This document shows positions 38,009 through 57,852 of a stretch of 64,000 nucleotides of DNA, piece by piece (the first letter of the stretch is position 1; the number at the start of each line of letters is the position of its first letter). The notes beneath the pieces are model-generated. The model saw only the letters and a list, made by a program, of their open reading frames with translations. It made no database searches and was not told where the DNA came from. This DNA comes from a virus (Duplodnaviria; Caudoviricetes): positions 1-64,000 of IMG/VR virus record IMGVR_UViG_3300037400_003374; one strand, written 5' to 3'. A program made the position numbers and the translations under genes.

Positions 38009-38640
38009 ATTGCAATCCTTCTTTCTTAATGTTTGTCAGTTCCATCTGACAGTTACTATTATACTCATGCCGGCAGAAATGTCAAGCACTTTTTTTAGAA
38101 AAAATGTAAAAAGTTTTCGGGAAGAATCCGCCACCATTTATATACATATATATAACTATTCAGAAAGATATATACATATACATAACTATTCAGATATGTA
38201 TAAGTATATAATCATTATGACGTTATACATATTCCGGTACATACCAGTTAGTTATGACTAACTAACTCATAGTTCTCTCCCATTGTGTATATAGTAGCAT
38301 ATAATTATCATTGTGTCAAGCACTTTTTTCAAAGTCAACGGAACGGAAAAACGATAAGTTGCCATAGAGATAAAATAGTTATATATGTATATATAACTAT
38401 TTTGGCAATGACGAGTTTATAATAGTTAGGCGCGCCTAACTGGCGCGCCTTTTCCACCATGCACATTATAGCAAAGTATTCGCAACTTGTCAAGTAAAAT
38501 TTTTAAAAATGGCGATCCGGGAAAACGTTATAACATTATAACAATAGAGTATAACAGAAAAGGCATGGAATCAATTTCCATGCCTTTTCTCTTGTTCTTG
38601 TCCGGCCTTTTGGCAGGAAGGAAAGGATTATTTCCTTTCC

Positions 38641-38955
38641 TTATAAATCCTCACCCATGTCCGATTCATAGCAATCAGCACACAAGTACTTTCCATGTTC
38701 AAAGTCACAGCACCATGATTCCAAGGAGAAATAATCAACCTTTTCCTTGCACTCAGCACAGCAGAATACTTTCTGAGACCGGATAGCAGAACCGAAGAAC
38801 AATTCCTTGTAGCGGTCAGTATAAACAGTATCATCATAGGAACGGCGTACCATTTTTCCACCGCGTTTGAAGTAATGAGGAACATGTACAGTTTTCTTTT
38901 CTTCTTCTTTCATCTCATCAACCAAACCCATTACCATTTTTACTTCAGTAGTCAT
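38641..38955 (-). CDS. Cys-rich hypothetical protein, family B, copy 2
   Basis: Paralog of 36481-36795. Confidence 0.75.
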   Translation of the reverse strand: MTTEVKMVMGLVDEMKEEEKKTVHVPHYFKRGGKMVRRSYDDTVYTDRYKELFFGSAIRSQKVFCCAECKEKVDYFSLESWCCDFEHGKYLCADCYESDMGEDL

Positions 38956-39027
38956 TTTCAAATCCTTCTTTCTTTTAATTCGTTCCCTCAGGAACTGTCT
39001 GTATTGTATCATGTTTCTCCGGCATTG

Positions 39028-39327
39028 TCAAGCATTTTTTTCAAGAAATTTTTTATATCTTTCCGTGTCCTTCCAAACATCCATAGTTCTATAAGTACGC
39101 GGTTCGATACTGAAGTTTTTTAAGCCGCCGTCCCATGCAAGAGCAAACACATTAAGAATGCAGATAGGAACAATCAGAAGGACATAAACAGGTACTTTCA
39201 TTTTAGAAATAACATTTACGCTATATTCTTTTTCTTCAATATAGTGATTGCATGCCAGCTTTTCAAGCATATGCATTTTCTTAAAACCAAGCAAGATAGC
39301 AAGTTCGGAATAACTAATCTTTTTCAT
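39028..39327 (-). CDS. Hypothetical protein with one predicted TM segment, 99 aa
   Basis: Own promoter, AAGGAAAA leader hairpin, AGAAAGG RBS; hydrophobic stretch VPVYVLLIVPICILNVFALAW. Confidence 0.7.
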   Translation of the reverse strand: MKKISYSELAILLGFKKMHMLEKLACNHYIEEKEYSVNVISKMKVPVYVLLIVPICILNVFALAWDGGLKNFSIEPRTYRTMDVWKDTERYKKFLEKNA

Positions 39328-39674
39328 AACAATTACCTTTCTGGTTTTTTAGGACTTTTCCTTGTCCTTTTGACGGTTAGAGTATAGCATAGTTTTCTGA
39401 GCGTGTCAAGCACTTTTTTTAAAAATCTTTTTTCTCACATATGTATATAGCCATAACTAACCGCTTGCCGGCGAACTAGTTAGTTTTAGCTAACCGGTGG
39501 GCCTTTTCCACCATGCATATTATAGCAAAGTCTTTTCAAACTGTCAATAGGTTTTTTTCGCAAGAGTGCCGGATCAGCATTGACACCTATTGAAATATAA
39601 TGATGATACTTTTATAACTATTATGCAAAAGAAAAAGCATGAACTTTTGTTCATGCTTTCTTTATCCGATTTAG

Positions 39675-39860
39675 TTACTCTCCGCAAGCGGTATATACTC
39701 TTTCACTCTTGCACCATACTTCAATACTTTCTTCACTTGTGAACTTGTCCCCGTCTTCTTCTTTGTAAAGCTTTTCAGCAATTGCAATGGCCTTTTCAAG
39801 TGTCTCAGCGGTCTCCCAAGCATCGAATCCTTCCCAAGTCTGTAAACCGATTGTAAACAT
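39675..39860 (-). CDS. Small hypothetical protein, family A, copy 3
   Basis: Paralog of 36162-36347. Confidence 0.75.
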   Translation of the reverse strand: MFTIGLQTWEGFDAWETAETLEKAIAIAEKLYKEEDGDKFTSEESIEVWCKSERVYTACGE

Positions 39861-40011
39861 TTTTCATACTTCCTTTCTTTTAATGTTCCCTCAGGAACTG
39901 TCTATATTATACAGCCGGCTATAAATTTTGTCAAGCACTTTTTTTATTTTTTTAAAAAACTTTTTTCCGGCATGGAAGGGAAAGGATTGTTTCCTTTCCC
40001 TTCCATATCTG

Positions 40012-40206
40012 TTACTGCTTTCCATATTCCTTGATGAGATACTCCAGATTGTAAGTCATGTCATGCAGTTTAGTGTTAGCGTAATAATCATCAAGTATGG
40101 AAGTGTCAGGATATGCTTTGTCAGCGAGAGAATGAATAACTTCAATGGCCTTCTGAAGGATAGCAATCTCATTTTCTGAGAGAGTGTAGCTAAAACGGTT
40201 AGTCAT
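40012..40206 (-). CDS. Small hypothetical protein, family D, copy 1
   Basis: Paralog of 46363-46560 (AIxVIHxLADKxYPD...KLHDMTYNL). Confidence 0.75.
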   Translation of the reverse strand: MTNRFSYTLSENEIAILQKAIEVIHSLADKAYPDTSILDDYYANTKLHDMTYNLEYLIKEYGKQ

Positions 40207-40425
40207 GGTGTAAACCCCTTTCCTTTAGTTGATGATTGAAGTATAATGCATTTTGATGTTTTTGTCAAGCACTTTTTTTAACTTTTTTCAAAAATTTTTT
40301 CTTTCATCAATTGTTATAACGTTATAACTTTTTTCCGGCATGCCGGCATGGTATACATGGCGATCCGTTAACAGAGATATAAAAAAGGGCTTTACGCCCT
40401 TTAATAGTGCCGTTTTCATTATAGT

Positions 40426-40587
40426 TTAAATTGAGTCACACAATGGCCAACCAAACATTTCCGACTCTTTGCACCATTCTTCAAAGGAAAGATAATGTGC
40501 ATAATCTCCATGCTCATAAATGATATCACTCACATAAGACTCATAACAATCACGTTTTTGTTCGTCGGTTAATTCTTTCCAAGTCAT
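40426..40587 (-). CDS. Small hypothetical protein, 53 aa
   Basis: MTWKELTDEQ...; GAAAGGGG RBS, own promoter. Confidence 0.65.
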   Translation of the reverse strand: MTWKELTDEQKRDCYESYVSDIIYEHGDYAHYLSFEEWCKESEMFGWPLCDSI

Positions 40588-40655
40588 TTTTTTCTTTCCC
40601 CTTTCTTTTGGGCTTTTCGTCCACAACTATATGATAATGCTTTTTTCTGTATTTG

Positions 40656-40880
40656 TCAAGTGACTTTTTCAATCACAAGCCAGCTATCATCAATCTCATA
40701 TGCATTTTCTGTTTTTGCTTGTATAGCTTTTCCCCATCCCATTCTAATACAATGATCTGCAGATGAGTATGTATCAAACGTTCCATTCCATTCACCAAAC
40801 TTAGTTGAAATATCGGGAGTGTCACAAAAGGCAATTTTGTAAAGTTCTGCATCCTTGTGTTTCTTGCTAAAAAGTTTCAT
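40656..40880 (-). CDS. Small hypothetical protein, 74 aa
   Basis: AGAAAGGA RBS, own promoter near 40935. Confidence 0.65.
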   Translation of the reverse strand: MKLFSKKHKDAELYKIAFCDTPDISTKFGEWNGTFDTYSSADHCIRMGWGKAIQAKTENAYEIDDSWLVIEKVT

Positions 40881-41103
40881 AATACTTCAGTCCTTTCTTT
40901 GAAGTATCTATATGATAGCATAGGCGCGCGAAAATGTCAAGCGAAAATTTTTAAAAAATTTTTTTAAAAAAACTCTTGACAACTTGTATCAGATGAGTAT
41001 AATATACATGACGGAACCGGAGAGAGGAGGGAGGAAACCGCCCAGTAGTTAGTTATGACTAACTAACTAGCAACTATAAGAAAAAAGGCCTTCCGGCCTT
41101 TTT

Positions 41104-41274
41104 TCAATCCATCATGATAACTTTTCCGCTTTCATAAACAATGTATGATTCCTCATCCGTTGCAGTCTCATCAAAAGCTTCGCACCATGCAATCACTTCG
41201 CTAAGTGTCTCAAAAGTTACTTCTAAGTCAGTGGGTTTCATTCCTTCATAGTTGGTGTAAATCTCGTACTTCAT
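41104..41274 (-). CDS. Small acidic hypothetical protein, 56 aa
   Basis: MKYEIYTNYEGMKPTDLEV...; RBS, own promoter and terminator; not in the ORF track. Confidence 0.65.
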   Translation of the reverse strand: MKYEIYTNYEGMKPTDLEVTFETLSEVIAWCEAFDETATDEESYIVYESGKVIMMD

Positions 41275-41467
41275 AATTCGTTGCCTTCTTTCTTTTAATC
41301 TGTTCCCTCAGGAACTGTCTATAGTATAATGCATAATAACCTTTTTGTCAAGTACTTTTTTTAAAAAAAAATAAAAAAAATTTTTTTCAAAAACCCCTTG
41401 ACAAATATAAATAAATGACTATAATATAATTGACAGGCCGGAGAGGGGAGGGGGAGGTGGACCATCG

Positions 41468-42282
41468 GTTAGTTATGACTAACTAACTAAAATTAGACAC
41501 GACTAACTTTAGTTAGATAAAACTAACTAGAGTTAGTTATGACTAACTCAATAATAGTTAGTTGTAACTAACTGCCTCATCCACCGGTCCCGATCCGGTC
41601 CGTAAAGTCAAAGAAAGTCAAAGTCAAAGAAAGTCAAAATCAGGCGCGAGTTAGTTATGTCTAACTATAGTTAGTCATGCCTAACTCAGGTGCCTTATCC
41701 GAACCGATCCGAAAAGTCAAAGAAAGTCAAAGTCAAAGACGAGTTAGTTATGACTAACTCAATATTAGTTAGTTATAGCTAATTATAGTTAGTTGCAACT
41801 AACTAGAGTTAGTTATGACTAAGTCACTATTAGTTAGTTGGCACTAACTAGAGTTAGTTATGACTAACTAACGTTAGTTGTACCTAACTACAGTTAGTTG
41901 TGACTAACTATAGTTAGTCATGTCTAACACGAGTTAGTTATGACTAAGTCACTATTGGTTAGGTATAACTAACTAGAGTTAGCCGTGACTAACTGTAGTT
42001 AGTGGTGTCTAACTAAAGTTAGACAAGCCTAACTTTAGTTAGCTGAGACTAACAGAAGTTAGCTGGGACTAACGCTAGTTAGTCAAGACTAACTAAAGTT
42101 AGCTGCGTCTAACTGAAGTTAGATATAACTAACTAAAGTTAGCTGGGACTAACTGGAGTTAGCTGAGACTAACTCCGGTTAGCTGTAACTAACTAAAGTG
42201 AGCTGAATCTAACTGTAGTTAGTTGTAACTAACTTTAGTCAGCTGAACCTAACTCCGCCGGCGCTGGTTAGTTATGCCTAAC
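41468..42282. repeat. Dense array of ~33 palindromic GTTAG-N6-CTAAC sites, including 15 units in exact 20-bp phase (41958-42253)
   Basis: Unit GTTAG-N6-CTAAC-N4; the N6 and N4 sequences vary while arms and spacing are fixed. Confidence 0.93.
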
Positions 42283-42305: not shown

Positions 42306-42350
42306 TGTGGATAACTCTGTGGATAATTTTGTGGATAAAATTGTGGATAA
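42306..42350. promoter_or_regulatory. Four tandem perfect DnaA boxes (TGTGGATAA) at 12-bp period
   Basis: TGTGGATAA at 42306, 42318, 42330 and 42342, the reverse complement of consensus TTATCCACA. Confidence 0.88.
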
Positions 42351-42355: not shown

Positions 42356-42384
42356 TTGACACATTAGCGCCCCGGGTGTATACT
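42356..42384 (+). promoter_or_regulatory. Strong sigmaA-type early promoter (representative of roughly 50 in 36300-57100)
   Basis: TTGACA-N17-TATACT. Similar TTGACA-N16-18-TATAAT promoters with upstream A/T tracts precede most small genes on both strands (approximate manual count). Confidence 0.85.
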
Positions 42385-42418
42385 TGACTCATCAAATGAA
42401 GGAAAGGAAGTCACGAAC

Positions 42419-42862
42419 ATGACCAAGGAAATGATGCAGGAACTTTACAACAAGGTATCGGGGGCTCACAAGTATGCTCTGGGCTTTATCTTCCAGCACA
42501 AGCTGTATGCCGTCAAGCTGAGCTTTGAGGGAATCAGTAAGTATTTCAAGCTGGACCATGCAAGCTCTAAGAGGGGCGGATATGCAAAAATCCGTATTCG
42601 CCTGACCGCCGCGGACCGTGCTAAGCTGAGTGAAGTGGCGGAGCTGCTGGGAGCTGAAGAGCTGCTGACCAAGGACACCAAGTACAACAAGGGTGAGAAC
42701 TTCGAACGGGAGCTGACAGAACGCTGGACCGGAGAAACCTGGGTAAAGGATAGTGTCCCCTTCTGGGTATGCGGTGATATCCGGGTAGACGGTGAAGAGA
42801 TTCAGATCAAGCTGGACGGTGCGGAGCTGACCAACGAGAAGGTACTGGCAGGGCTGGCCTGA
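42419..42862 (+). CDS. Hypothetical protein, family C, copy 2
   Basis: Paralog of 37559-38008; TGA stop. Confidence 0.8.
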   Translation: MTKEMMQELYNKVSGAHKYALGFIFQHKLYAVKLSFEGISKYFKLDHASSKRGGYAKIRIRLTAADRAKLSEVAELLGAEELLTKDTKYNKGENFERELTERWTGETWVKDSVPFWVCGDIRVDGEEIQIKLDGAELTNEKVLAGLA

Positions 42863-43033
42863 GGCCCTGCCGGATCGGCCCCGGCCGATCCTTTTCTATG
42901 CCGGCAAGCTGGGGCTGGAAAACGCGCCGGCGAGCTGGGCTTGCCGGCAAAAAATTTTTCGCTGGGGCGAAAAACCCCTTGACAAGCTGGCTGTAATACG
43001 CTATAATGTGTACATGAAAGAGAGGTGCTAAGT

Positions 43034-43228
43034 ATGGAGATTGTAAAGTTTGGACGGACTTGGGTAATAAATACTGTTGCTGACTATGAGCACGCCATGG
43101 AGGTACTGGACGGGAATGAGTTCTGCGCGGACATGTCGGACGACTGGGCACGCGCTGATAGGGAGAAAGCTGAGATAAGGCGGCAAAGGCGCGATGTCAT
43201 AGCACAAGCTGGCAAGCTGAAGGCTTGA
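43034..43228 (+). CDS. Small hypothetical protein, 64 aa
   Basis: GAGGTG RBS, own promoter at 42980. Confidence 0.65.
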   Translation: MEIVKFGRTWVINTVADYEHAMEVLDGNEFCADMSDDWARADREKAEIRRQRRDVIAQAGKLKA

Positions 43229-43275
43229 CAAGCTCCAAAATTATGATATAATTAATAGTGAAAGGAGCTGATAGC

Positions 43276-43788
43276 ATGGGCATAAAACGAGATTTTGCCC
43301 CAGTGACAAAAGCGCTGAATGCTTTTGTACGCAAGTTTGATGAAGAATATTCTTGTACACTTGGCCCCGCTTTTGAGGCCATTAATGATGAAATTATTAT
43401 CTATACTGTAATGGTATGTGATAATACTGCTCTTTCCTTCCGTAATGATTTTATAAAGCGTTTTCCCGCTTGTGCTGACTTCAATCTGTTTACATTATCA
43501 TTCATGCATGAACTGGGACACTTAGAAACGGCGCTGGATACAGTTAATGATATAGAAGAAAGAAATGAAATAAATGCTATGAGCAACCGCGAACTAGCAT
43601 TGACCAAATATTATCAACTGTATAATGAATGCCTCGCTACTAATTGGGCGGGACAGTATCTGACTAAACATCATAAGGATATGAAAGTCTGGGAAAATAA
43701 AATTACAAAACTTTTTAAAAAAGTACTTGACAAACATTCCACTAAGTCGTATAATGATGATGTTGAAAGGAGCGATTGTAATGAATAA
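43276..43788 (+). CDS. HExxH zinc metallopeptidase-like protein, copy 1
   Basis: LSFMHELGH motif plus downstream E-x-x-A; paralog at 56366-56806. Confidence 0.7.
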   Translation: MGIKRDFAPVTKALNAFVRKFDEEYSCTLGPAFEAINDEIIIYTVMVCDNTALSFRNDFIKRFPACADFNLFTLSFMHELGHLETALDTVNDIEERNEINAMSNRELALTKYYQLYNECLATNWAGQYLTKHHKDMKVWENKITKLFKKVLDKHSTKSYNDDVERSDCNE

Positions 43789-43999
43789 ATTCTACATGGG
43801 TATCGAGTGCCAGTGCCCGCTGTGCGGAGCAACCGCAAACGTGTATGTTAAGACTATTGATTATCGTGCTTGGCGTGCAGGCGCTTTAGCACAGACTGTT
43901 TTCCCCTACTTGAAACCGCAGGTACGGGAAATGTTAATTAGCGGTTTGTGCCCGACTTGCTATGATAGCTTGATGGGCGAGGATGAGGAGGGCGAGTAA
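43781..43999 (+). CDS. Zn-ribbon protein, 72 aa
   Basis: CQCPLC...CPTC; GAAAGGAG RBS; own promoter at 43728. Confidence 0.68.
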   Translation: MNKFYMGIECQCPLCGATANVYVKTIDYRAWRAGALAQTVFPYLKPQVREMLISGLCPTCYDSLMGEDEEGE

Positions 44000-44147
44000 T
44001 CGCCCTACCCTCCGCCCGCCGGCGGGGCCTTGAATTGGCGCGAGAACTGTGCTAAACTAATGATACGATATAAAAATTTATTTTAAAAAGTACTTGACAA
44101 AGAAATGAAAATGTCGTATAATCTAGCCATAGAAAGGAAGGATAGCA

Positions 44148-44600
44148 ATGATGAAACAGATTTGGTTTGACATGGATGGCACGATTGCAAACCTTTATGC
44201 AGTGGATGGATGGCTTGAAGATATTAGAGCAGAAAATACAAGGCCGTATAGCGAAGCAAAGCCTATGCTTAACTTCTCTCTGCTTGCTCGTTTACTGAAT
44301 CAGGTACAGCGTGCAGGATGGGAAATCGGAATTGTAAGTTGGGGAGCAAAGAATAGCACAGAAGAATTTTTGAAAATGACTGGTTGCGCTAAGTTCTATT
44401 GGCTTCAGAATCATCTCCCCTCTGTAAATTGGAATCACATTTATATTGATTATTACGGTACAAATAAATTTCAGCGTTGTGGCGGTGAAGGCATTCTGTT
44501 TGATGATGAAGCGCAGAATCGTGAAGCGTGGGAAAATGGCATGGCATACGAACCGATGGAAATTATCAATGTCTTGAAGCGGTTAGCAAAAGGGGCTTGA
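44148..44600 (+). CDS. HAD-superfamily phosphatase (nucleotidase-like)
   Basis: Motif I FDMDGT, motif II IVSW, motif IV LFDD. Confidence 0.8.
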   Translation: MMKQIWFDMDGTIANLYAVDGWLEDIRAENTRPYSEAKPMLNFSLLARLLNQVQRAGWEIGIVSWGAKNSTEEFLKMTGCAKFYWLQNHLPSVNWNHIYIDYYGTNKFQRCGGEGILFDDEAQNREAWENGMAYEPMEIINVLKRLAKGA

Positions 44601-44636
44601 CAAGCCCCTTGCAATCAAAGAAAGGAGCATTGAAGT

Positions 44637-44828
44637 ATGAGGGTTGAAGATTTGGCAAAGGCACTGTGGGTATTAGATAACGATAGCGCAAAACGGCATT
44701 GGACAGTAGAGAAAATTCAAGGCGGTTATATTCTTATGTCCGATCATACTCGCTTTACTGTAAAAGAATTAGCAAATAAATATGATGATAAGCATGAAAC
44801 AGATAGTATAATTCCTGGCTTTAATTGA
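44637..44828 (+). CDS. Small hypothetical protein, 63 aa
   Basis: GAAAGGAG RBS. Confidence 0.6.
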   Translation: MRVEDLAKALWVLDNDSAKRHWTVEKIQGGYILMSDHTRFTVKELANKYDDKHETDSIIPGFN

Positions 44829-44981
44829 CCAGATACGACAATGTCAAATCTGGTCGCCGGCAAATTTTTCCTAAACAATTTTGTTTTATATATCCCATAA
44901 CCTAATTTCATTCTGAATCGTTGAACAAAAATTTTTTTAAAAAGTGCTTGACATTTTCCTAAAATGGATTATAATAGTAAC

Positions 44982-45080
44982 TGTCAGAAGGGAAAGGGCT
45001 CCTTCTGATAGAACTTGGAACGGTAGGCAGAGTTTCCTCCCAACGTCGCCGCAAGCGTTGCCTTCCAAGTTCGCTCTACC
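44982..45080 (+). ncRNA. Candidate structured leader/sRNA with possible pseudoknot
   Basis: Promoter at 44948; 10-bp 5' hairpin; 10-bp stem GAACTTGGAA/TTCCAAGTTC; loop GGTAG complementary to downstream CTACC. Confidence 0.45.
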
Positions 45081-45102
45081 TAATTAAGAAGGAGAAAAGT
45101 AT

Positions 45103-45342
45103 ATGGAAAAGTATGTTTATGTTGTCACAATTGAAGATGAAGAAGGAATAACAATCTTTGGTGCTTATACTGATGCAGTATCTGCTACCAATACTGTATG
45201 GGCGCTTGCCTTTAATAGTCTGATTCAGGATATTGAAGAAGATTGTATAGGTACGCGATACATTGTTATCAATGCTTTGGGTAATAAGGAATCATATTAT
45301 GTCCAGAAAATTCCGCTAGATGACCAGTTCTGGACCCGATAA
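45103..45342 (+). CDS. Small hypothetical protein, 79 aa
   Basis: AAGGAG RBS. Confidence 0.68.
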   Translation: MEKYVYVVTIEDEEGITIFGAYTDAVSATNTVWALAFNSLIQDIEEDCIGTRYIVINALGNKESYYVQKIPLDDQFWTR

Positions 45343-45436
45343 CCCACCCCTTGCCGGCGGATTGTTAAAAATTTAACAAACTTTTTTTGAAAAAAGCGCT
45401 TGACAAAAACCCGAAAAGGAGTATAATCATACTTGT

Positions 45437-45530
45437 CAGAGGGACAAAGGATCACCTCTGGAAGTGCAAAGGGTAAGGGAATGATCCCCCAATTACACCG
45501 CAAGTGTCTTACCCTTTGGGCGACTCCCAA
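45437..45530 (+). ncRNA. Candidate stand-alone structured sRNA (three-way junction)
   Basis: Own promoter at 45400, no convincing ORF before the next promoter. Stems CAGAGG/CCTCTG, AAAGGGTAA/TTACCCTTT, GGGA/TCCC, ACAC/GTGT, TTGGG/CCCAA. Confidence 0.5.
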
Positions 45531-45629
45531 AAAAAATTTCAAAAACCTCTTGACATTCTAGTACAAAAGTACTATAATGAATACACAACAGAGGAAGGAA
45601 AACCTCATCAAACCAGAAAGGCAACCCCT

Positions 45630-45950
45630 ATGAAAAAGTCCACTCTTCAGTCTCTCGTTTCCTACCTGACCGAAAAGGGCGATGAGTCCATGCAGGAAGT
45701 CCTCGCAGAACTGACCGCAGAACTTGCAAAGGGACAGACCAAGGTTGATGCAACTCGGAAGGAATATGATGAAATGCGTGAGCAGGTCATGGAAGTCCTC
45801 CGCTCTGCTACCCTTCCTGTTTCTGCGCAGGAGATCGCCGATGAGACTGGCCTTTCAAAGGGCAAGATCGTCTATGGTCTGACTCGGCTGTGGGCCGCAG
45901 ATGTCGCAAAGACTGAGGGAAAGGTTAGCACCTACGCCCTCAAGGCCTAA
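45630..45950 (+). CDS. Winged-helix-like DNA-binding protein, family W (MKKST...), copy 1
   Basis: SAQEIADETGLSKGKIVYGLTRLW HTH-like segment followed by wing EGKVSTY; three close paralogs. Confidence 0.72.
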   Translation: MKKSTLQSLVSYLTEKGDESMQEVLAELTAELAKGQTKVDATRKEYDEMREQVMEVLRSATLPVSAQEIADETGLSKGKIVYGLTRLWAADVAKTEGKVSTYALKA

Positions 45951-49146: not shown

Positions 49147-49187
49147 AATGGTATTGTTCTCAAGAAGAACAGAAAGGATGAATTAAA

Positions 49188-50008: not shown

Positions 50009-50133
50009 GCCTTTCCTTCTTGGTGGCGAAAACTGACTCGCCTTAATTGATGCGTAAGCGCTCCGTATAGCCAAGAACCACGAGAGTTTCTGAAGGGCTT
50101 TCAGTGTGGCTAAACAACACAAGCCCTTTATAC

Positions 50134-50219
50134 GGGAATGAGGACGATCAGATAATTGTCAGGCCCCTCGTGGGTAAGCGCAAGGCGCCAAGTGGGTGCG
50201 ACTCCCACCATTTCCACCA
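50134..50219 (+). ncRNA. tRNA-like element with alanine identity (G3.U70, A73, encoded CCA) and degenerate anticodon arm
   Basis: Acceptor GGGAATG/CATTTCC-A-CCA; T arm GTGGG-TGCGACT-CCCAC; D arm GACGAT/ATTGTC; extra arm GCGC/GCGC; terminator directly after. Confidence 0.68.
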
Positions 50220-50220
50220 A

Positions 50221-50242
50221 CCGCCTTCGGGCGGTTTTATTT
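50221..50242 (+). terminator. Intrinsic terminator
   Basis: CCGCC-TTCG-GGCGG followed by a T-rich tract. Confidence 0.85.
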
Positions 50243-50502
50243 TCAAGGCGAGTTAGTCTCAACTAACTCCGCCGGCGATGTTAGGCGTGACTAACTAAAA
50301 ATTTTTTTCTCCAAACTATTGACAAAATTTCAAAACTATACTATAATACAATTGTTCCAAGGAACGGGGACGGACTTAGGAAGGTGAGATGTTAAAGGTT
50401 GCCATGAAGTTTCTGTAGTCCCAGGAAATGGAGTGGCCAGGTTTCTGCGTGGCTTTCCCTGTTACGGAAAAAGTCACGCCCATTATGAAAGGGGTAAAAA
50501 TT

Positions 50503-50760
50503 ATGAGTAAAATTCTGGATGTAGAATGGCAGTCTTGGCATGAATTATCAGTGAATGTAGATGAAATTGTTGATGATTGTAAATATAGAATGGAAAAGTG
50601 GCATGTCCCTCTTGAAGAAGTAGTAGATATTGCAATTGAAGGTTATGTTTCTGGATTCGATGATGCACTGTATTACAGTTGGAACGAGGATGCGCAGAAA
50701 CAGGTAAGAGACGCCGTATTGCAGGCTTTCGGCGGTGTGCAGCTTAGCATGTTTGACTAA
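50503..50760 (+). CDS. Small acidic hypothetical protein, 85 aa, with a long structured leader
   Basis: GAAAGGGG RBS; promoter at 50319; leader hairpin GCGTGGC-TTTCC...GGAAA-AAGTCACGC. Confidence 0.62.
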   Translation: MSKILDVEWQSWHELSVNVDEIVDDCKYRMEKWHVPLEEVVDIAIEGYVSGFDDALYYSWNEDAQKQVRDAVLQAFGGVQLSMFD

Positions 50761-51029
50761 GCTAACCGCCCGCCGGCATATTTCTGCCGGCGGGAGTTAG
50801 TTATAACTAAGTAATTAAAAAAAATTTTTTCCAAGTAGTTGACATTCAGTGAAAATTGAGTATAATAGATACTGTCAGGAGGGAACAAGAGTCCCAATAA
50901 AAAAACTTTGAAAAAAAGTTTAAAAAAACTCTTGACAGACTTTCCAAAACCTGATATAATACAGATGTTCCCAAGGGAACGAACGAATGAGAAGGAAAAC
51001 TCAGCTAAACCAGAAAGGAAGATACCTCT

Positions 51030-51362
51030 ATGAAAAAGTCTACTATGAATGCTATCCTGTCCCTCATCTCCACCATGGATTCTCCCGAAGCTGAAACTGT
51101 ACGCAATGAGCTGACCGCTGAGCTGAACAGGGGAGCTGAAAAAGCTCAGGCAAATCGGGAGCTGTATGAGACCGCTTGGGATGCGGTTTATGGCGTGCTG
51201 GATGTCGAATATCCTGCTACTGTCGCTGAGATCTATGAAGCTGTAAAAGACTCTCTGCCCGCTGGTTTCACTAAGGCCAAGGTACAGTATGCGCTGGGAC
51301 ACTACTGGAACAAAGATGTCGTAAAGCATGAGGGCAAGGTTAACACCTACACTCGGGCTTAA
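51030..51362 (+). CDS. Winged-helix-like protein, family W, copy 4
   Basis: Paralog of 45630-45950. Confidence 0.75.
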   Translation: MKKSTMNAILSLISTMDSPEAETVRNELTAELNRGAEKAQANRELYETAWDAVYGVLDVEYPATVAEIYEAVKDSLPAGFTKAKVQYALGHYWNKDVVKHEGKVNTYTRA

Positions 51363-51598
51363 TTTCAACCTCTTGCGCCCTTCGGGGCGCCTTTTTATGC
51401 GCGGAGTTAGCCACAACTAACTCTGCCGGCCCGCGGTTAGGCAAGTCTAACTTCAAAAATTTTTAAAAAAAAATGCTTGACAATTTCCAAAATTATGCTA
51501 TAATAGACTCAAGAAGTTGAGGAACAGAAAAAAATTCCTCTTGACAACTTCTTAAAAACATGATACAATTAGTTGAACTTAAGGAAAGGATTGATTTT

Positions 51599-51937
51599 AT
51601 GAATAAGTCTCAGCTTGAAACCATGTTGCGCAACGACTACCTCGACACCCTTCAGAAACTTCTTTCCGAAAAATATGACACCGATGTGTTGCCTGTTAGC
51701 GCCAACGAACTTGCTCTCCCTTGTGTTGACGCGGAGGGCAACGAAAAATGGATTGTGGTAAAGGTTTCTACCCCTCGTGGGACTCGTGATGGCAAGGGCG
51801 GTTATATCCCTTATGATGGGTATGCTCTTGCGGAAGAATACCAGATGGAGTGCGAAGACAAGGCACAGGAAAAGGCCGAAAAACAGGCCATGAAGGAAAA
51901 GGAAAAGGAAAGCAAGAAAAAGAAAAAGGCCGAATAA
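51599..51937 (+). CDS. Hypothetical protein with Lys/Glu-rich C-terminus, 112 aa
   Basis: GGAAAGGA RBS; weak similarity to 55572-55970 and to the N-terminal half of 58679-59170. Confidence 0.7.
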   Translation: MNKSQLETMLRNDYLDTLQKLLSEKYDTDVLPVSANELALPCVDAEGNEKWIVVKVSTPRGTRDGKGGYIPYDGYALAEEYQMECEDKAQEKAEKQAMKEKEKESKKKKKAE

Positions 51938-52001
51938 TTCGGCCTTGACTTTCTCTTCATTCTATGCTATAATGGTCCACGTTGAAAGGAGCAATTTGAT
52001 T

Positions 52002-52688
52002 ATGAAAGATTTGTACATGGTATTTGATACGGAAACTTGCAACACTCCCAAAATTGATGGGCAGCTTGATACCAGCGCGGGCCAGGTTTATGACTTTGGT
52101 TTTCAGATTGTAGACAATGAAGGGAATGTTTATGAGGAACATTCATACGTCAATGAAGATGTATTCTTTGATCTTCCCGAAGCTATGCAAGAATCATTCT
52201 TTGCTGACAAAATCCCGCAGTACTTGGAAGGACTGCGCAACGGTTCCCATCAAATGGTTAACACTTGGGATTTATACAGGATTGTCAGGAAAATGGTCGA
52301 GAAGTACGACATTAAAGCCTTCATTGCGCACAATGCGCGCTTTGACGTTGCAGTATTAAATGCAACACTGCGTTATCAAACTAAAAGCGTTCGGCGGTAC
52401 TTCTTCCCTTATGGTATCCCCATTTGGGACACAATGAAGATGGCTAACGATACAATTTGTAAACTGTCGTCATATAAACAGTTTTGTGAAGTCAATGGAT
52501 ATATGACCAAGCATAAAATTCCACAGGTGCGCAAAACAGCGGAAATTTTATGGCGCTTCCTTCAGAAAGATAATGACTTTGAAGAAAAGCATACGGGCCT
52601 TGAAGACGTAAAAATTGAGGCGCAGATTTTCGCGGAGTGCGTGCGGAGACATAAGAAAATGGAACGCCTCGCAGACCTTGACAAATAA
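52002..52688 (+). CDS. DEDDh 3'-5' exonuclease (DnaQ-like), copy 1
   Basis: Exo I FDTET, Exo II AHNARFD, Exo III HTGLED. Confidence 0.85.
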   Translation: MKDLYMVFDTETCNTPKIDGQLDTSAGQVYDFGFQIVDNEGNVYEEHSYVNEDVFFDLPEAMQESFFADKIPQYLEGLRNGSHQMVNTWDLYRIVRKMVEKYDIKAFIAHNARFDVAVLNATLRYQTKSVRRYFFPYGIPIWDTMKMANDTICKLSSYKQFCEVNGYMTKHKIPQVRKTAEILWRFLQKDNDFEEKHTGLEDVKIEAQIFAECVRRHKKMERLADLDK

Positions 52689-52779
52689 GGCCCCGCGGGG
52701 CCGGCAAAAATTTTTTTCAAAAACCTATTGACATTTTTTCCAAGTTATACTATAATTAACAATGTCAGGAGGGATATGA

Positions 52780-52938
52780 ATGAAACGAGCACTGTATAAG
52801 CGTTATGATGAACTCTCTGCTTGGGATTTAAACAAAGGTTGCAGACATATTGTAAATCAGCATACTCCCGCAAGGCGCAGACTGAAAAAGGTATTGCGCA
52901 AGCAGGCACGTGCACGACTGAAAGGAGCGATATTATGA
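52780..52938 (+). CDS. Small basic protein, 52 aa
   Basis: GGAGGG RBS, own promoter; ATGA overlap with the next gene. Confidence 0.55.
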   Translation: MKRALYKRYDELSAWDLNKGCRHIVNQHTPARRRLKKVLRKQARARLKGAIL

Positions 52939-53240
52939 GGGATGCTATCATGGGAACTTATGACAGGGAGTATACTTACTGCCCTGTAAACGCTTACGGT
53001 AATTGCCCTTATTGTGATAAAAAGTGTATCTGTCACGTTGAAGACCCTTTGAAAGATTGCGATGATTGGGGCATGTTCTGGGGCAGTTGGGATGAATGGA
53101 AAAGGATTGACTGGGTAACCGAGGACAATTCCGCACAGGACGAGATTGAATGGGCCGAAGAAAACTACGGCTATGAAGAACCCGATAATATAGAAATGGG
53201 TTTTGACCCCTACGCAGGTTGTTATACAGATGACTGTTGA
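52935..53240 (+). CDS. Cys/Trp-rich acidic hypothetical protein, 101 aa
   Basis: GAAAGGAG RBS; CPVNAYGNCPYCDKKCIC; ends MGFDPYAGCYTDDC. Confidence 0.68.
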   Translation: MRDAIMGTYDREYTYCPVNAYGNCPYCDKKCICHVEDPLKDCDDWGMFWGSWDEWKRIDWVTEDNSAQDEIEWAEENYGYEEPDNIEMGFDPYAGCYTDDC

Positions 53241-53369
53241 GCGGGTTAGCTTCGGCTAACCCTGCCGGCCAAAAATTTTTTTCGGAAACCTCTTGACAAG
53301 GCCGAAAAGTATGATATAATATACAGGAAAGTTGAAGGAAAACAACTCAAACCAGAAAGGTATTTAAAA

Positions 53370-54035
53370 ATGAATTTCCTTGTACTTGATGGTGAGACTT
53401 GCAACACTCCCAAAATTGATGGCCAGTTAGATGTCAAAAATGGTCAGGTTTATGACCTTGGTGGAATGGTCATTGATGAGTATGGACAGGAAAAGATGCG
53501 GTTTAGCGTAGTAAATGAAGATGTATTCTTCAGAATGCCCTATCAGATGAAAGAAGCGTATTACAGCGAAAAAATCCCGCAGTACATTAAAGACATTAAC
53601 AGCGGGAAACGCAAGGTAGTAAATACTTGGCAGATGTGGAAAATGGTACAGAACATTTGCAAAGAATACAAAGTGCAGGCAATTGTTGCACATAATGCAT
53701 ACTTTGATATTCAGACATTAAATGCTACTATGCGCTATCAGACTAAATCAGCAAAGCGTTATTTCCTTCCCTATAAAATGAACGTCATTGACAGCTTAAA
53801 AGTTGCACGTAAAGTATTTAGCAATGATATTGATTACATTCAGTTCTGTAAGGAAAATGGCTATATGACCAATACCAAAACCCCTCGCCCTAGACTTACC
53901 GCCGAAGTATTATGGCGCTATATCAGCAATGACAATGATTTCATTGAAAGTCATACAGGATTTGAAGATGTGGAAATTGAAAGCAAAATTTTTTCAAAAT
54001 GTCTTGACAAAATCCGCAAACATGATATAATGTAA
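53370..54035 (+). CDS. DEDDh 3'-5' exonuclease, copy 2
   Basis: LDGET, AHNAYFD, HTGFED; paralog of 52002-52688. Confidence 0.85.
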   Translation: MNFLVLDGETCNTPKIDGQLDVKNGQVYDLGGMVIDEYGQEKMRFSVVNEDVFFRMPYQMKEAYYSEKIPQYIKDINSGKRKVVNTWQMWKMVQNICKEYKVQAIVAHNAYFDIQTLNATMRYQTKSAKRYFLPYKMNVIDSLKVARKVFSNDIDYIQFCKENGYMTNTKTPRPRLTAEVLWRYISNDNDFIESHTGFEDVEIESKIFSKCLDKIRKHDIM

Positions 54036-54061
54036 TCATCAACCAGAAAGGAATTGATAAT

Positions 54062-54199
54062 ATGAAAGTGTACATCAAGAATGTTGCTCAGGAACAGACA
54101 GTACGTGAACTTCCCTTTACTCATGCCCTTTGGCTTCGGTGGAAAGTCTTCACCATGTACGCCAAAAAGGGTAGGCCCATTGTCAGATTTTTAATCTGA
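54062..54199 (+). CDS. Small basic protein, 45 aa
   Basis: CCAGAAAGG RBS, own promoter; not in the ORF track. Confidence 0.55.
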   Translation: MKVYIKNVAQEQTVRELPFTHALWLRWKVFTMYAKKGRPIVRFLI

Positions 54200-54246
54200 C
54201 CTTGGGCGGCCCTTCCATCAGAATTTAATAAAAGGAGAAATGAAAT

Positions 54247-54489
54247 ATGGATACTAACATGACTATCGCCAATATGCTTTATGAAGCTAACAAGATGCCC
54301 TACGATGACGTGACATTACTGATTAAAAAGTTGCGGGCAGTCCAAGCACGAAAGGCATTACAGCGCCAGTTTCATGAGCGCATGAATGACTTGATTCAGG
54401 AAGCACGGGAACAGGGTTTTGAGTTTGTAGATCATACTTGCGGATACCTTTGGCGCGAAGACGAATTCACGGTATTTGATAACGAATGA
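54247..54489 (+). CDS. Small hypothetical protein, 80 aa
   Basis: AAGGAG RBS. Confidence 0.65.
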   Translation: MDTNMTIANMLYEANKMPYDDVTLLIKKLRAVQARKALQRQFHERMNDLIQEAREQGFEFVDHTCGYLWREDEFTVFDNE

Positions 54490-54540
54490 TGGGAGAAATC
54501 CCATCATTCGGGAGCCCGCCGGCACGCTAGGCCCACTTTG

Positions 54541-55046
54541 TCAAGAGTGGGCGTTGCAAGCGTAGTCAATAATTACGGGATGCCCTTCTTTCCAGCCATA
54601 ATTCTGATTGTGTACGTCATAAATATGTTCCATAACCCAATCGCATTCATCGCCTACCAAATACTCATAAACGTCATACTGATATTTACCAATTCCAGGA
54701 ATTCTAGGCATGATGCAGAAGGAATGGCCCATATATTCAACCATGGTGGGTTTTGCTAACAGATGAGCAAAACCCTCTTTTTCTGCCAAAGCATACAACT
54801 TAACTTCATCAGCACAGGAACCAAAGTCATGCACATTACGATAAGAACCAAAATCATATTTGATAACATAGTCAGAAGTAATAAAGCACACACGAGTCAG
54901 GCATGTGTAAACACAACATGACGCTGATGGTCATAGTTAAAATGACGCACTGCCTTTTCAAACTGATGCCAGCTATCACAATTGGCGATATAGTCATAGA
55001 ACTGATGCAGGAACTTCTCAGCGCGAACTTCATAACTAGTCTTCAT
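54541..55046 (-). pseudogene. Frameshifted kinase-like paralog of 46701-47213
   Basis: MKTSYEVRAEKF...VFTH then CAT GCC TGA. One extra G near 54900 would give HGLTRVCFI, matching HGVSRIAII of the paralog. Downstream DVHNQN and IIDYA motifs are intact. Confidence 0.72.
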
Positions 55047-55312
55047 ACTTCATTCCTCCCTTTCATGAGTAGAGTATAGCATACTATTAAAATCCTGTCA
55101 AGCACTTTTTGAAAAAAATTTTCGGCGCGCCGGCGCGGTTAGATGCGTCTAACTGTTTGACAATTTTTAAATTTTAGAGTATAATATATATGAAAGTTGA
55201 GGGAAGAAATTCAAAAAAATGAAAATTTCCTCTTGACAAACTTTCAGACCCATGCTATAATAGACCCATCAAGTGAAGGAAAACACTTAAAAACCAGAAA
55301 GGAAAATACCTC

Positions 55313-55483
55313 ATGCGTTACTATGTTACATTCATCCTTTGCAAGAATGGTGAAATTCTCAGACTTTGGAACAGTTCAGACCGCTTTGCAGAACGAGTAA
55401 AAGCAATGGAGATGGCACAGACTCTTGTGAGGAATATCCAAGATAGTGGATATAGCATTTATTATAAAATTAAGGAAATATAA
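55313..55483 (+). CDS. Small hypothetical protein, 56 aa
   Basis: AAGGAAAA leader hairpin and AAACCAGAAAGG RBS; not in the ORF track. Confidence 0.62.
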   Translation: MRYYVTFILCKNGEILRLWNSSDRFAERVKAMEMAQTLVRNIQDSGYSIYYKIKEI

Positions 55484-55571
55484 AAATTCTTCTTGACAAG
55501 CTTCCCGATTCATGCTATAATCAATACATCAAGTGAAGGAAAACACTTCAAACCAGAAAGGATATACCCTT

Positions 55572-55970
55572 ATGGCAAAAATTTCTAAGCCTGTTGTCGA
55601 TGCTACTCTTCGTCTCGATGCATTTCAGTTCGCTTTTCCCGAATATTTTGACATTGACAATGCGGATGTTTCCGCAGACAAGGTAATTCGTTTCGATAAG
55701 GTAAATGATCGTCAGTTCGGCCTTATCATGAAGGACTTAAACGGAAACGAGCGTTACATCCGTATCGGGGCGATTGTTGCAGAAGAACGTGAGGACATGA
55801 CTGCACAGGAATTGATGCAGAAGGAAATTGATGACTATAACGCAAAAAAGGCCGATAAGGCCGAAAAGGCCAAAGCCAAGGCAGTGAAAATTGCCAAGGA
55901 CAAGGCAAAGCGTGAACAGGCCAAAGCAGAGGACAAGGACGATGAAAATCAGTCCTTGCCCATGAAGTGA
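55572..55970 (+). CDS. Hypothetical protein with Lys/Ala-rich C-terminus, 132 aa
   Basis: AAGGAAAA leader hairpin, RBS, own promoter. Confidence 0.7.
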   Translation: MAKISKPVVDATLRLDAFQFAFPEYFDIDNADVSADKVIRFDKVNDRQFGLIMKDLNGNERYIRIGAIVAEEREDMTAQELMQKEIDDYNAKKADKAEKAKAKAVKIAKDKAKREQAKAEDKDDENQSLPMK

Positions 55971-55995
55971 CTATGTAAGGAAGGGGATATCAAAT

Positions 55996-56253
55996 ATGAG
56001 TAAAGTCGTGTATGTCTTATCCTATCAGGGTGAACCTGACCATGTTTATACCTCTCTTGAACCTTTGATTAAAATGTGCTACAAGTACATGAATGAACAC
56101 CGCAGTGCCGAAGAAAAAATGTTCAACTACTGGTTAGAGGATAGATTCTATACAGAAGACACAGCAGAACAGGCTTGGAATGACTACATTGATTGGATTT
56201 TTGACTATGGTAAATGGGGCGATTACAGTTATCTTGAAGTACTGTTAGATTAA
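55996..56253 (+). CDS. Small hypothetical protein, 85 aa
   Basis: AAGGGG RBS. Confidence 0.65.
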   Translation: MSKVVYVLSYQGEPDHVYTSLEPLIKMCYKYMNEHRSAEEKMFNYWLEDRFYTEDTAEQAWNDYIDWIFDYGKWGDYSYLEVLLD

Positions 56254-56365
56254 TGCCAAGGGAGTTAGTTTAGGCTAACTCCCGCCGGCGCGAAAAAATT
56301 TTTGAAAACCGCTTGACATTTCCTTCAAAGTATACTATAATACTCTTGTCGAAAGGAAAGGAGCG

Positions 56366-56806
56366 ATGTTCATGACACAGGTTCAAGCAATTCGTCAGTT
56401 TGCTTCTTACGTTGCAAACACTAAAGCAGTAATTGCACGCACTCGGGAAGAATGGAGTATCACCCTTGACTATCCTTATCCCTACTTGACTTTACCTAAA
56501 GACTTGATGGAAAATTCAGAAGGCGATAAAGCCTTTAGAAAAGACTTTGTTGCAAGGTGTCCCATGGGTAGAGGTTTTGCAAACGTTACTTTATCTGTTT
56601 TACATGAAATCGGCCACTTCTTTACTAAAGAAATTTTCGACTCACAGGACATGGACGAATATGCAAAAGTAACCGAATATGAAGAATATTTTGCACTCCC
56701 TTGTGAAAAGGTAGCAACAGATTGGGCTATCAATTGGCTTCAGAACAAAGAACACCGTAAAGTAGCAAAAGCATTTGAAAAATCATTCTTTATTGGGAGG
56801 AACTAA
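56366..56806 (+). CDS. HExxH zinc metallopeptidase-like protein, copy 2
   Basis: LSVLHEIGH...PCEKVATDWA; paralog of 43276-43788. Confidence 0.72.
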   Translation: MFMTQVQAIRQFASYVANTKAVIARTREEWSITLDYPYPYLTLPKDLMENSEGDKAFRKDFVARCPMGRGFANVTLSVLHEIGHFFTKEIFDSQDMDEYAKVTEYEEYFALPCEKVATDWAINWLQNKEHRKVAKAFEKSFFIGRN

Positions 56807-56807
56807 T

Positions 56808-57023
56808 ATGTGCCAAATCAAAGAAACAGCGCTTTGCAAGTTTTGTCCGAACATTGATAAATGCCGAGAAGAACGTGACCAAATGTTATTCAAACTGGCA
56901 TTTGATTGGTGGAATTTTGATAGAGTGCCTCCCGAATATTTAAGGACCGAAGAAGTAATACAGGCCCTTTTGGATTATATCCATGATAATCCCGAACGTT
57001 TTCGCGGCCAGCGCCCACAATGA
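56808..57023 (+). CDS. Small Cys-containing protein, 71 aa
   Basis: GGGAGG RBS; CKFCPNIDKC. Confidence 0.62.
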   Translation: MCQIKETALCKFCPNIDKCREERDQMLFKLAFDWWNFDRVPPEYLRTEEVIQALLDYIHDNPERFRGQRPQ

Positions 57024-57134
57024 TCGGGCGCGCCGGCAGGGTTAGATTTAACTAACTTGAAAAAATTTTCCCAAACCTCTTGACAGCTTTCCTGACTTAT
57101 AGTATAATCAAGATGTTGAAAGGAGATGGACACC

Positions 57135-57278
57135 ATGAAAAAGACCAAAACCAAAGCGAAAACTTGGACTGAAGTATTCCAGTCCGAAAGGAAAACTTGG
57201 GGCAACGTAAACCCAGTGACCAAGGTTATTCCAGACAAGAGATTTAAGAAGCCGAAGTACAAGAACTATGATGATTAA
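57135..57278 (+). CDS. Small basic protein, 47 aa
   Basis: AAAGGAG RBS, own promoter; not in the ORF track. Confidence 0.6.
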   Translation: MKKTKTKAKTWTEVFQSERKTWGNVNPVTKVIPDKRFKKPKYKNYDD

Positions 57279-57291
57279 AGGAGAGATATGT

Positions 57292-57495
57292 ATGGTAACT
57301 CGTAGCTATTATGTTCCCCGCAATCAGATTGGGCGCTATGTAATGAATTTGGTAGTAGATAATGTCGGTTGCAGTGTCGCAGATATTACCCCTAACGTCT
57401 CAGTTGAAGTTATCCGCTTTACTATCACTTGTCGTGATAGGGATATTCCCACTGTTGAACAGATTTTAAAAAGTTACAATATGTTAGGAGATTGA
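57292..57495 (+). CDS. Small hypothetical protein, 67 aa
   Basis: AAAGGAG RBS. Confidence 0.62.
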   Translation: MVTRSYYVPRNQIGRYVMNLVVDNVGCSVADITPNVSVEVIRFTITCRDRDIPTVEQILKSYNMLGD

Positions 57496-57852
57496 CAATA
57501 TGCATTTAACACCGCAAGATATCCAATACATTCAGGCCTTCCAGGCCTTTACGTAGGAAACACTGGCAGCGGTCCGCCGCGCCGGCAAGTGTCACAACTT
57601 TACAGAAGGATTTTTTATTCGGTTACTGGACCTATTGGACAAGTTTAAAACAGAGTTCTGGAACGTGCCGGCATAATTTGCCGGCACGCTTTTTCTGCCG
57701 GCAGGCTTGCCGGCGACTTTTTCTGCCGGCGCGGTTAGTTATAACTAACTCACTATTATACTTTTGTAACTATTATGTCCTCGTCACTGTTACATGTTCA
57801 TCACTGTCCCCTATATATTGGGGCGCGGCCACTATATCTTGTACCCCGCCGC

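Follow-up and report, generated by a model that had tools for sequence, protein, structure and literature searches.

A palindrome repeated across the early region of a rumen phage matches a putative operator of metal-dependent repressors in Bacillota

The early region of a large rumen phage contains dozens of copies of an inverted repeat, GTTAG-N6-CTAAC (hereafter the dyad), whose extended form is also found beside metal-related genes in the genomes of Bacillota. The phage is represented by the IMG/VR record IMGVR_UViG_3300037400_003374, a single linear sequence of 73,663 bases with a completeness of 41% by CheckV, and the first 64 kb of this record (64,000 nucleotides, hereafter the window) were analysed. 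The window contained 57 exact dyads, compared to a mean of 0.07 in 100 dinucleotide-preserving shuffles. We consider it about 45% probable that a host metalloregulator binds these sites, with the arrays of sites sequestering it and the single sites acting as roadblocks at the boundaries of transcription units.

A site model was built from 247 sites pooled from the window, two complete relatives (G001 and G005) and ~30 other contigs. The consensus was an 18-bp perfect palindrome, AGTTAGTYATRACTAACT, and both the flanks and the six central bases were mirror-symmetric. A at position −1 (73%) was mirrored by T at +16 (78%), T at position 5 (70%) by A at 10 (74%), C or T at position 6 by A or G at 9, and A at position 7 (60%) by T at 8 (63%). 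An earlier interpretation made from the letters of the window (the sequence-only reading) had listed single dyads between genes, all of which were present within 10 bases of where it placed them, and its extended form GAGTTAG-N6-CTAACTCCGCCGGC was matched exactly at 45996 and 50252 and nearly so at 48154, 51406 and 56264. It had also described the N6 as varied. Individual sites did differ, but the core was not free, as T-Y-A-T-R-A (Y, C or T; R, A or G) was preferred across the 247 sites. The symmetry of the dyad, N6 included, fits that expected of a homodimer on duplex DNA. Between orthologous sites of the window and its closest relative, contig L046 (75–82% nucleotide identity), the arms were kept at 39 of 40 positions and the N6 was changed at about half.

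We scanned the genomes of 185,579 bacterial and archaeal species, one genome per species, for the 18-mer and found at least 120 loci, almost all in Bacillota (Lachnospiraceae, Oscillospiraceae, Ruminococcus, Erysipelotrichaceae, Anaeroplasma and Clostridium). The host-genome site often lay directly after a TATAAT-like −10 box and just 5' of the ribosome-binding site and the ATG. Because about half of the 18-mer matches could be due to chance, the regulon assignment rests on the enrichment of gene contexts, for which the proteins neighbouring the loci were clustered into families. Among the 120 loci listed, the neighbours included FeoA (two clusters, 18 and 11 loci), FeoB (17), ATP-binding cassette (ABC) exporters (13), ZIP transporters (12), DUF3793 proteins (12), a regulator with Fe_dep_repress and Fe_dep_repr_C domains (11) and flavodoxin (9). 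With ABC exporters left out, 51 of the 120 listed loci had FeoA, FeoB, ZIP, flavodoxin, DUF3793 or a DtxR-family regulator within 1.5 kb. Other loci among the matches listed added DUF2325, Nramp, Fe/Mn superoxide dismutase, AhpC and ABC exporters. Genes for Xre/HTH_3 proteins were not enriched beside the host-genome sites among the matches listed, and the possibility that these sites are prophage repressor operators was rejected on that ground. Five whole Bacillota genomes had 1–4 sites each (12 in total, compared to one for a reversed-pattern control), and these sites were located 5' of genes for ZIP (three times), FeoA, DUF3793 and DUF2325.

A test independent of the motif gave a consistent result. 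From 41 sampled Clostridia genomes, 30 feoA loci (92 kb) were picked by the Pfam model only, and AGTTAG-N6-CTAACT was found exactly in four of them and with at most one mismatch in nine, while the control was found in none and ~0.006 exact matches were expected. Operators of DtxR, IdeR and MntR resemble the dyad in being palindromic with GTTAG/CTAAC half-sites, and in known DtxR boxes these half-sites surround a 1-base centre (PMC524172); the 19-bp DtxR box thus differs from the phage dyad, in which the half-sites are six bases apart. Judged from this genomic context, the phage dyad appears to be the operator type of a metal-dependent repressor of the DtxR/MntR family in Bacillota. Chance is an unlikely source of an 18-bp agreement with the host operator that extends to the N6 preferences. 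The sequence-only reading had proposed a regulator-bound operator, which is retained here; the regulator itself is likely a host DtxR-family repressor, or a phage protein that mimics one, rather than an unknown operator protein of the phage.

The genome to which the window belongs was estimated at ~170–180 kb, from a rumen phage with TAG-recoded late genes. Ruminant gut metagenomes contain DNA nearly identical to the window, and no match for the region was found by megablast against 50,697 phage records. The left 35 kb had almost no long frames under the standard code, and reading TAG as sense opened minus-strand frames of 5,338, 856, 642 and 596 residues; the block at ~36–58 kb was readable in the standard code. 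The complete relatives G001 (180.8 kb) and G005 (169.5 kb), each of which has direct terminal repeats, were retrieved in full. Each had one ~25-kb block of raised G+C content (0.41–0.44, compared to ~0.33), where all dyads and nearly all perfect sigmaA-type promoters were located. The dyad region is therefore the early part of a large phage with recoded late genes, read by the host polymerase. A 20-base canonical word recovered 25 IMG/VR contigs with several dyads in each, together with perfect promoters and a GC palindrome (GCCGGC or GGCCGGCC) directly 3' of the dyad. The dyad element is thus conserved across a clade of phages in which the shared proteins have only 35–50% identity. One further contig, L128 (26.8 kb), is binned in an Acutalibacteraceae metagenome-assembled genome and has eight dyads (sites at 902 and 1491 among them), GGCCGG spacers and a leader like that of contig L001. 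It is most likely a fragment of a related phage, and its binning weakly suggests which group the host belongs to.

The dyads formed two arrays in the window (Table 1). Array A lies outside the region covered by the sequence-only reading and forms the left border of the early block, separating it from the TAG-recoded late operon (promoter 35073, minus strand). It was rejected as a CRISPR (clustered regularly interspaced short palindromic repeats) locus on account of its 22-base repeat, its periods of 33–69 bases and a unit that is the same palindrome. Array B lies where leftward and rightward early transcription diverge, the perfect promoter at 41398 (+) reads into it, and the minimum of the cumulative GC skew coincides with it. 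The same dyad occurs in the arrays and between genes, as the sequence-only reading had it in linking both through one operator, and its suggestion that the arrays titrate a regulator remains a live idea. Array B also contains exact matches to the published CtsR operator consensus, A/GGTCAAA-NAN-A/GGTCAAA (PMC12634643), and a CtsR-like element was found beside dyads in the related contigs L046, L047, L048 and L001. The window had four DnaA boxes, compared to 0.5 expected, all directly after array B, and ten DnaA boxes adjoin dyads in the contigs L015, L019 and L020. The orthologous place in L046 had four dyads and no DnaA box, compared to ~31 dyads and four boxes in the window, and a contig ~94% identical to the window differed from its arrays by indels of repeat units. 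Because array copy number is labile between such close relatives, the arrays would suit a role as dosage elements better than one as an essential origin. Varied N6 and unique spacers keep the array repeats non-identical.

Table 1. Dyads and associated features of the early region, with positions in the window.
Feature	Position	Strand	Remarks
Array A	35432..36050	.	12 exact and ~3 near copies of the canonical site (GTTAGTTATGACTAAC then TAACTA); unique spacers; periods 33–69 bases
Leftward early promoters	36425..41351	−	~14 with ≤1 mismatch; A/T tracts; a small gene after each
Single dyads, leftward early block	37247..41063	.	Canonical at 37247, 38247 and 41048; others at 38425 and 39479
GCCGGC, 37 copies	38069..57730	.	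Intergenic spacers; often 3–4 bases after a dyad; relatives with GGCCGGCC at the same place
Array B	41468..42282	.	~31 exact dyads, mostly in a 20-base register (GTTAG-N6-CTAAC-N4); varied N6
CtsR operator consensus RGTCAAA-NAN-RGTCAAA, three exact	41606..41731	+	All within array B; 0 expected in the window
DnaA boxes (TGTGGATAA), four tandem consensus copies	42306..42350	+	12-base period; end 5 bases 5' of the −35 of the first rightward promoter (42356)
Rightward early promoters	42356..57108	+	34 with ≤1 mismatch; mostly with an A/T tract; a small standard-code gene after each
Family C protein	42419..42862	+	147 aa; unmatched fold; first gene right of array B; paralog at 37559–38008 (−)
Winged-helix paralogs, four	45774–45950, 47784–48113, 49682–50008, 51030–51362	+	Terminator then dyad after each
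Single or paired dyads, rightward units	45996..57749	.	45996, 48154, 49418+49462, 50252+50280, 50796 (one mismatch), 51406+51436, 53245, 55138, 56264, 57041, 57734
Right edge of the early block	57664..57749	+	Two tandem GCCGGC-hairpin terminators (57664–57688, 57696–57715) then a canonical dyad at 57734

Outside the arrays, the dyads were tied to the ends of transcription units. The sites at 45996, 48154, 50252 and 51406 start 15–16 bases after a terminator stem, and others 5–11 bases after a stop codon. When distances to the −35 were mapped, as the sequence-only reading had proposed along with a motif model, the centres of 12 rightward dyads lay 31.5–41.5 bases 5' of the −35, and the helical phase was not constant; across relatives the distance spread over 30–78 bases. 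Four promoters (38493−, 39547−, 40976+ and 41398+) had a dyad 20–40 bases 3' of the −10, among them the minus-strand promoters 38493 and 39547, with sites 38425 and 39479 ~20 bases 3' of their −10.

The promoters themselves were dense and strong. TTGACA-N16/17-TATAAT had 34 perfect 12/12 matches at 38.1–58 kb, where ~44 looser matches and essentially no perfect ones would be expected by chance in 20 kb. With at most one mismatch, 64 promoters were counted in the whole contig, ~50 of them at 36.4–57.1 kb, in agreement with the manual estimate of ~50 near-consensus sigmaA promoters in ~21 kb given by the sequence-only reading. Most early promoters had an A/T tract on their 5' side. The 73.6-kb contig had 39 copies of GCCGGC, of which 37 lay in the early block (36–58 kb), and copies abutting an A/T tract start 27–30 bases 5' of the −35. 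A shared module of five parts (terminator, dyad, GCCGGC, A/T tract and promoter) had been proposed for the cassette junctions; it was complete four to five times, and the other junctions were partial. A dyad lay within 100 bases 5' of the promoter at 12 of the 34 rightward promoters, and about two thirds of the cassettes had no site.

Under the host-repressor reading, metal-loaded host repressor would bind the sites once the phage DNA enters the cell. The arrays, with ~15 and ~31 sites and more as the genome replicates, would act as a sink that takes scarce repressor off its few chromosomal operators, since a regulator of 1–4 cell operators would meet 57 sites per phage genome. This sequestration would derepress host uptake of iron, manganese and zinc, as well as flavodoxin, and the array beside three CtsR sites and four DnaA boxes might do likewise for those two host factors. 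The single sites, placed after terminators and before GCCGGC, the A/T tract and the promoter, would serve as roadblocks between very strong transcription units, a role suggested by their association with the 3' ends of units at near-constant distance from the terminator. The four sites 20–40 bases 3' of promoters would be true operators. The phage probably infects an anaerobe; for context, the anaerobic ribonucleotide reductase NrdD is encoded by four of the five complete relatives (G001–G004), split into two frames in G001. NrdD depends on an iron-sulfur radical S-adenosylmethionine (SAM) activase.

Phage takeover is normally explained by early proteins, whereas in this conserved clade of large gut and rumen phages the early region has dozens of copies of what appears to be a host metal-sensor operator, with CtsR and DnaA sites next to them. 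Binding by the host repressor, if it occurs, would let the phage sense the iron and manganese status of its host and also alter it, which would make the sites a host-manipulation device consisting of DNA only. No description of phage-borne decoy arrays or sinks for host regulators was found in the literature searched. The analysis also yielded a computationally defined putative operator and regulon (feoAB, ZIP, Nramp, flavodoxin, DUF3793 and DUF2325) of the DtxR family in genomes of Clostridia, Erysipelotrichales and Anaeroplasma type. A wider version of the proposal, in which a virulent ~180-kb phage of rumen Bacillota uses its host-operator, CtsR and DnaA sites as sponges that strip three host regulators, and so reprograms metal uptake, the Clp stress regulon and replication initiation with no protein effector while insulating its early units, is in our judgement unlikely.

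Several points weigh against binding by a host repressor. We estimate that 35–70 genome-wide matches to the 18-mer, about half of those found, would be expected by chance. Literature text searches found no paper defining this operator for a DtxR-family protein of Bacillota, so the operator assignment is our own. The host-genome sites overlap the −10 or the transcription start, and most single sites of the phage have their centres near −66 to −77 and vary in helical phase, so that classical repression is unlikely at most of them. In array B, the N6 of many sites departs strongly from the TYATRA preference, and binding there may be weak. Two phage proteins also count here: a MarR_2-type winged helix-turn-helix (wHTH) protein of the relatives, weakly similar to the DtxR N-terminal domain, may be what actually binds the dyad, and a conserved protein of unmatched fold (family C) adjoins the arrays.

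The main rival, which we regard as somewhat unlikely, is that a dimeric regulator encoded by the phage binds the dyad and shuts off or times early transcription, with the arrays as its sink or as the nucleoprotein platform of an origin. In that case, agreement with the host operator would reflect mimicry, the phage protein acting also on host metal genes, or convergence, and a chance match of this length is unlikely as stated above; the CtsR and DnaA sites by the array likewise point to host factors. Candidate regulators are the MarR/DtxR-N-like wHTH, a wHTH paralog of the early block, the family C protein and a DicA-like Xre repressor, none of which could be linked to the dyad. An orthologous wHTH of ~115 residues occurs in all five complete relatives, passed the MarR_2 cut-off in two of three scanned copies, and gave a weak helix-turn-helix alignment to a host DtxR-family protein (29% identity over 99 aa), but its gene is far from the early block in the relatives and no such protein was found in the window contig. 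Each of the four wHTH paralogs of the early block is followed by a terminator and then a dyad, yet no early-region wHTH paralog was detected in G001. The sole HTH_3 protein of the window (63709–63909) had a match in only one relative and was not conserved among the dyad-bearing relatives. Family C was always located beside dyad arrays, in the window, in both G001 and G005 and at 6 of 25 loci, with two to three paralogs per phage, and has more than 829 relatives in metagenomes, with E96, D120, Q129 and K131 among the invariant residues. It had no Pfam or PHROG match. Its AlphaFold2 model was predicted with a pLDDT of 94.5 and had no Foldseek match (best E 0.36), a best VIA-align Z of 3.0 and an empty PDB profile search; a PD-(D/E)xK-like assignment from its D...QxK motif was rejected, as the predicted fold gives no support. 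A phage regulator is also favoured by the prophage Xre-type repressor DicA, which binds an identical 16-mer, and by a second palindrome of the same 5-N6-5 geometry, ACTTTA-N6-TAAAGT, which forms arrays in several relatives (L047 at 6761–6950 and 9698–9787, L048 at 4406–9615, L001 at 1087–1966 and 7022–7186, and G005) and was absent from the window. CACTTTA-N6-TAAAGTG was present in 16 of 401 Clostridia genomes, compared to six for the control, and the genes around three such sites in one Ruminococcus genome formed no coherent set. The evidence was too weak for the second palindrome to be regarded as a host operator.

Other readings give the dyad a different function. It is quite improbable that array B and its DnaA boxes form a replication origin with iterons or a parC-like centromere, the single sites being secondary. 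The 20-base phasing, the adjoining DnaA boxes, the divergence of transcription, the GC skew minimum and the clusters of DnaA boxes beside dyads in three other contigs would suit an origin, but the skew here follows the direction of transcription and so is not independent evidence, and the loss of the boxes and most dyads at the orthologous place in L046, the varying copy number among ~94%-identical contigs, the boundary sites and the host-operator match would be left unexplained or stand against it. ParB (PF02195) had no match in the window contig or four complete relatives, whereas ParR, TubR and Rep families were not searched; a ParB/KorB reading was rejected because no ParB gene was found. 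A role as RNA is very improbable. The dyad would then form a hairpin with a stem of 5–7 bp and a loop of 6 nt, located at the 3' ends of mRNAs or within transcripts of the arrays and bound by a sequence-specific RNA-binding protein or nuclease, as might be suggested by the promoters 40976 and 41398, which read into canonical sites and array B, and by the G+C-rich N6 of sites that have no separate terminator (e.g. the TTCG loop at 53245). Most single sites, however, lie between the T tract of a terminator and the next promoter and are not expected in RNA, the arms are fixed with no compensatory changes in the stem, and the palindromic preference of the N6 argues against a hairpin, since a loop needs no self-complementarity and such a preference only makes sense on duplex DNA. 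Hardly credible is the integron-like site put forward in the sequence-only reading, at which a tyrosine recombinase would cut the 6-base core to move cassettes. The 5-6-5 geometry would suit such enzymes, cassette content does vary among relatives, and integron attC/attI sites likewise have small cassettes between imperfect palindromes. Yet PF00589 was matched neither in the contig, which covers 41% of the genome, nor in five relatives that are 98–100% complete, although the control search matched in 14 of 14 genomes, and the only resolvase match was below threshold, inside an exonuclease-like gene. Unlike in integrons, most cassettes have no site (22 of the 34 rightward ones) and every cassette has its own promoter; moreover, the N6 is palindromic by preference, so that the core would not supply a direction of recombination, and tandem arrays of 31 sites are not integron-like.

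The few breakpoints examined between relatives also fell elsewhere. As the sequence-only reading had anticipated, relatives differed by whole cassettes, and the many paralogous gene families that it had seen on both strands were borne out; the recombinase search and breakpoint alignment that it had called for turned up no tyrosine recombinase in the contig or five complete relatives and no clean junction in the N6 core. Joints with sides of 21–35 letters were read as cross-matches between promoters or paralogs and excluded. A contig from run X4 lacked exactly 55251–55510, one unit of promoter plus gene, with both ends inside near-identical promoters. The stretch 47364–49579 of the window (2.2 kb, ~seven cassettes) corresponded to 89 bases in L046, from promoter to promoter. 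At 50252 the terminator, the dyad (with the same N6) and GCCGGCG were common to the window and L046, after which the sequences diverged, so this breakpoint lies between GCCGGCG and the A/T tract, and a 1.4-kb difference from L046 starts right after GCCGGCG. Because the clean junctions fall in repeated promoter modules, the mosaic of cassettes probably arose by ordinary homologous recombination between repeated promoter and spacer modules and was not site-specific at the dyad. It provides a clear case of cassette shuffling through repeated promoter modules in a phage of Gram-positive bacteria.

The T4 PeSL elements and the SPO1 host-takeover module, with which the early cassettes had been compared, are a fair analogy as far as promoter cassettes are concerned. 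In both, strong promoters read by the host polymerase are densely packed over the early genes, with a small gene after each promoter and with terminators, and recombination between repeated promoter modules has been proposed for PeSL in T4. The early block here is similar in its promoter density per small gene and in the location of cassette gain and loss in repeated promoter modules, but PeSL and SPO1 are not known to share a protein-binding palindrome among their cassettes or to have a GC-palindrome spacer or arrays of operators.

A metal-dependent host repressor acting on phage DNA has a precedent in DtxR, which controls the tox gene of corynephage beta. That phage has one operator on one toxin promoter, whereas the window has 57 copies, arrays of 15 and 31 sites, and a placement mostly off the core promoter. 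Many short intergenic sites over a block of genes are also known from the stoperators of cluster A mycobacteriophages (L5 gp71), which are thought to halt read-through rather than initiation. A stoperator is an asymmetric site that follows the direction of transcription and is recognized by the temperate phage's own repressor; the dyad, in contrast, is a perfect palindrome equal to the host-genome operator, and no integrase was found in the contig or the five complete relatives. Clusters of sites that set the level of free regulator, or one operator spread over a regulon at varied distances, are found at datA and among the KorB OB sites. The DnaA sink datA is chromosomal and serves the cell itself, and KorB is encoded by plasmid RK2 and belongs to the ParB family, no member of which was found here in the window contig or four complete relatives. 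The central 16 bases of the dyad, GTTAGTCATAACTAAC, are identical to those of Oc, the operator of DicA in the Qin prophage of E. coli, and, as a precedent for sequestration, extra copies of Oc on a high-copy plasmid titrate DicA and derepress its target (PMC3441716). Oc differs in belonging to a Gram-negative prophage, in being a single operator bound by a protein of Xre/P22 C2 type, and in its flanks (TG...CA, compared to A...T in the phage dyad).

Several minor features of the window were recorded. The late module (3–35017, minus strand) is TAG-recoded, with 156 in-frame TAG codons in the 5,338-residue frame, and the early block uses the standard code. No tRNA was found in the window or the remainder of the contig, and a tRNA with anticodon CUA was present in G001 (61228–61316) and G005 (91293–91369), among 13–33 tRNAs. 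Ten larger early proteins were scanned against Pfam and PHROGs, for the most part with no match. The only early genes that the window shares with both G001 and G005 were family C, a pair of paralogous DnaQ-like exonuclease genes (51996–52688 and 53370–54035, plus strand; phrog_20187 and phrog_192) and a 5'-3' deoxyribonucleotidase gene (44148–44600, plus strand).

Many early transcripts start with a hairpin, GTTCC-N4-GGAAC or a close variant, followed by a strong ribosome-binding site; such hairpins lie after the −10 boxes, e.g. at 36395, 37155, 39000, 39905, 41320, 48500, 48730, 50355 and 50970. A short repeat, (T)CACTATTAT or TAACTATTAT, follows the canonical dyads at the edges of the early block (37290–37350 and 57750–57830) and the repeats of array A. 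Two perfect plus-strand promoters (40976–41105 and 41398–41470) read through a short leader rich in GGA or GGAG (e.g. GGAGAGAGGAGGGAGGAAA) into a canonical dyad, and the leader from 40976 is closed by a bidirectional terminator, which predicts a small RNA of ~95 nt. This arrangement of the GGA-rich leader is kept in L046 (8575–8660), L001, L047 and L048, and the leader might sequester ribosomes or a GGA-binding protein.

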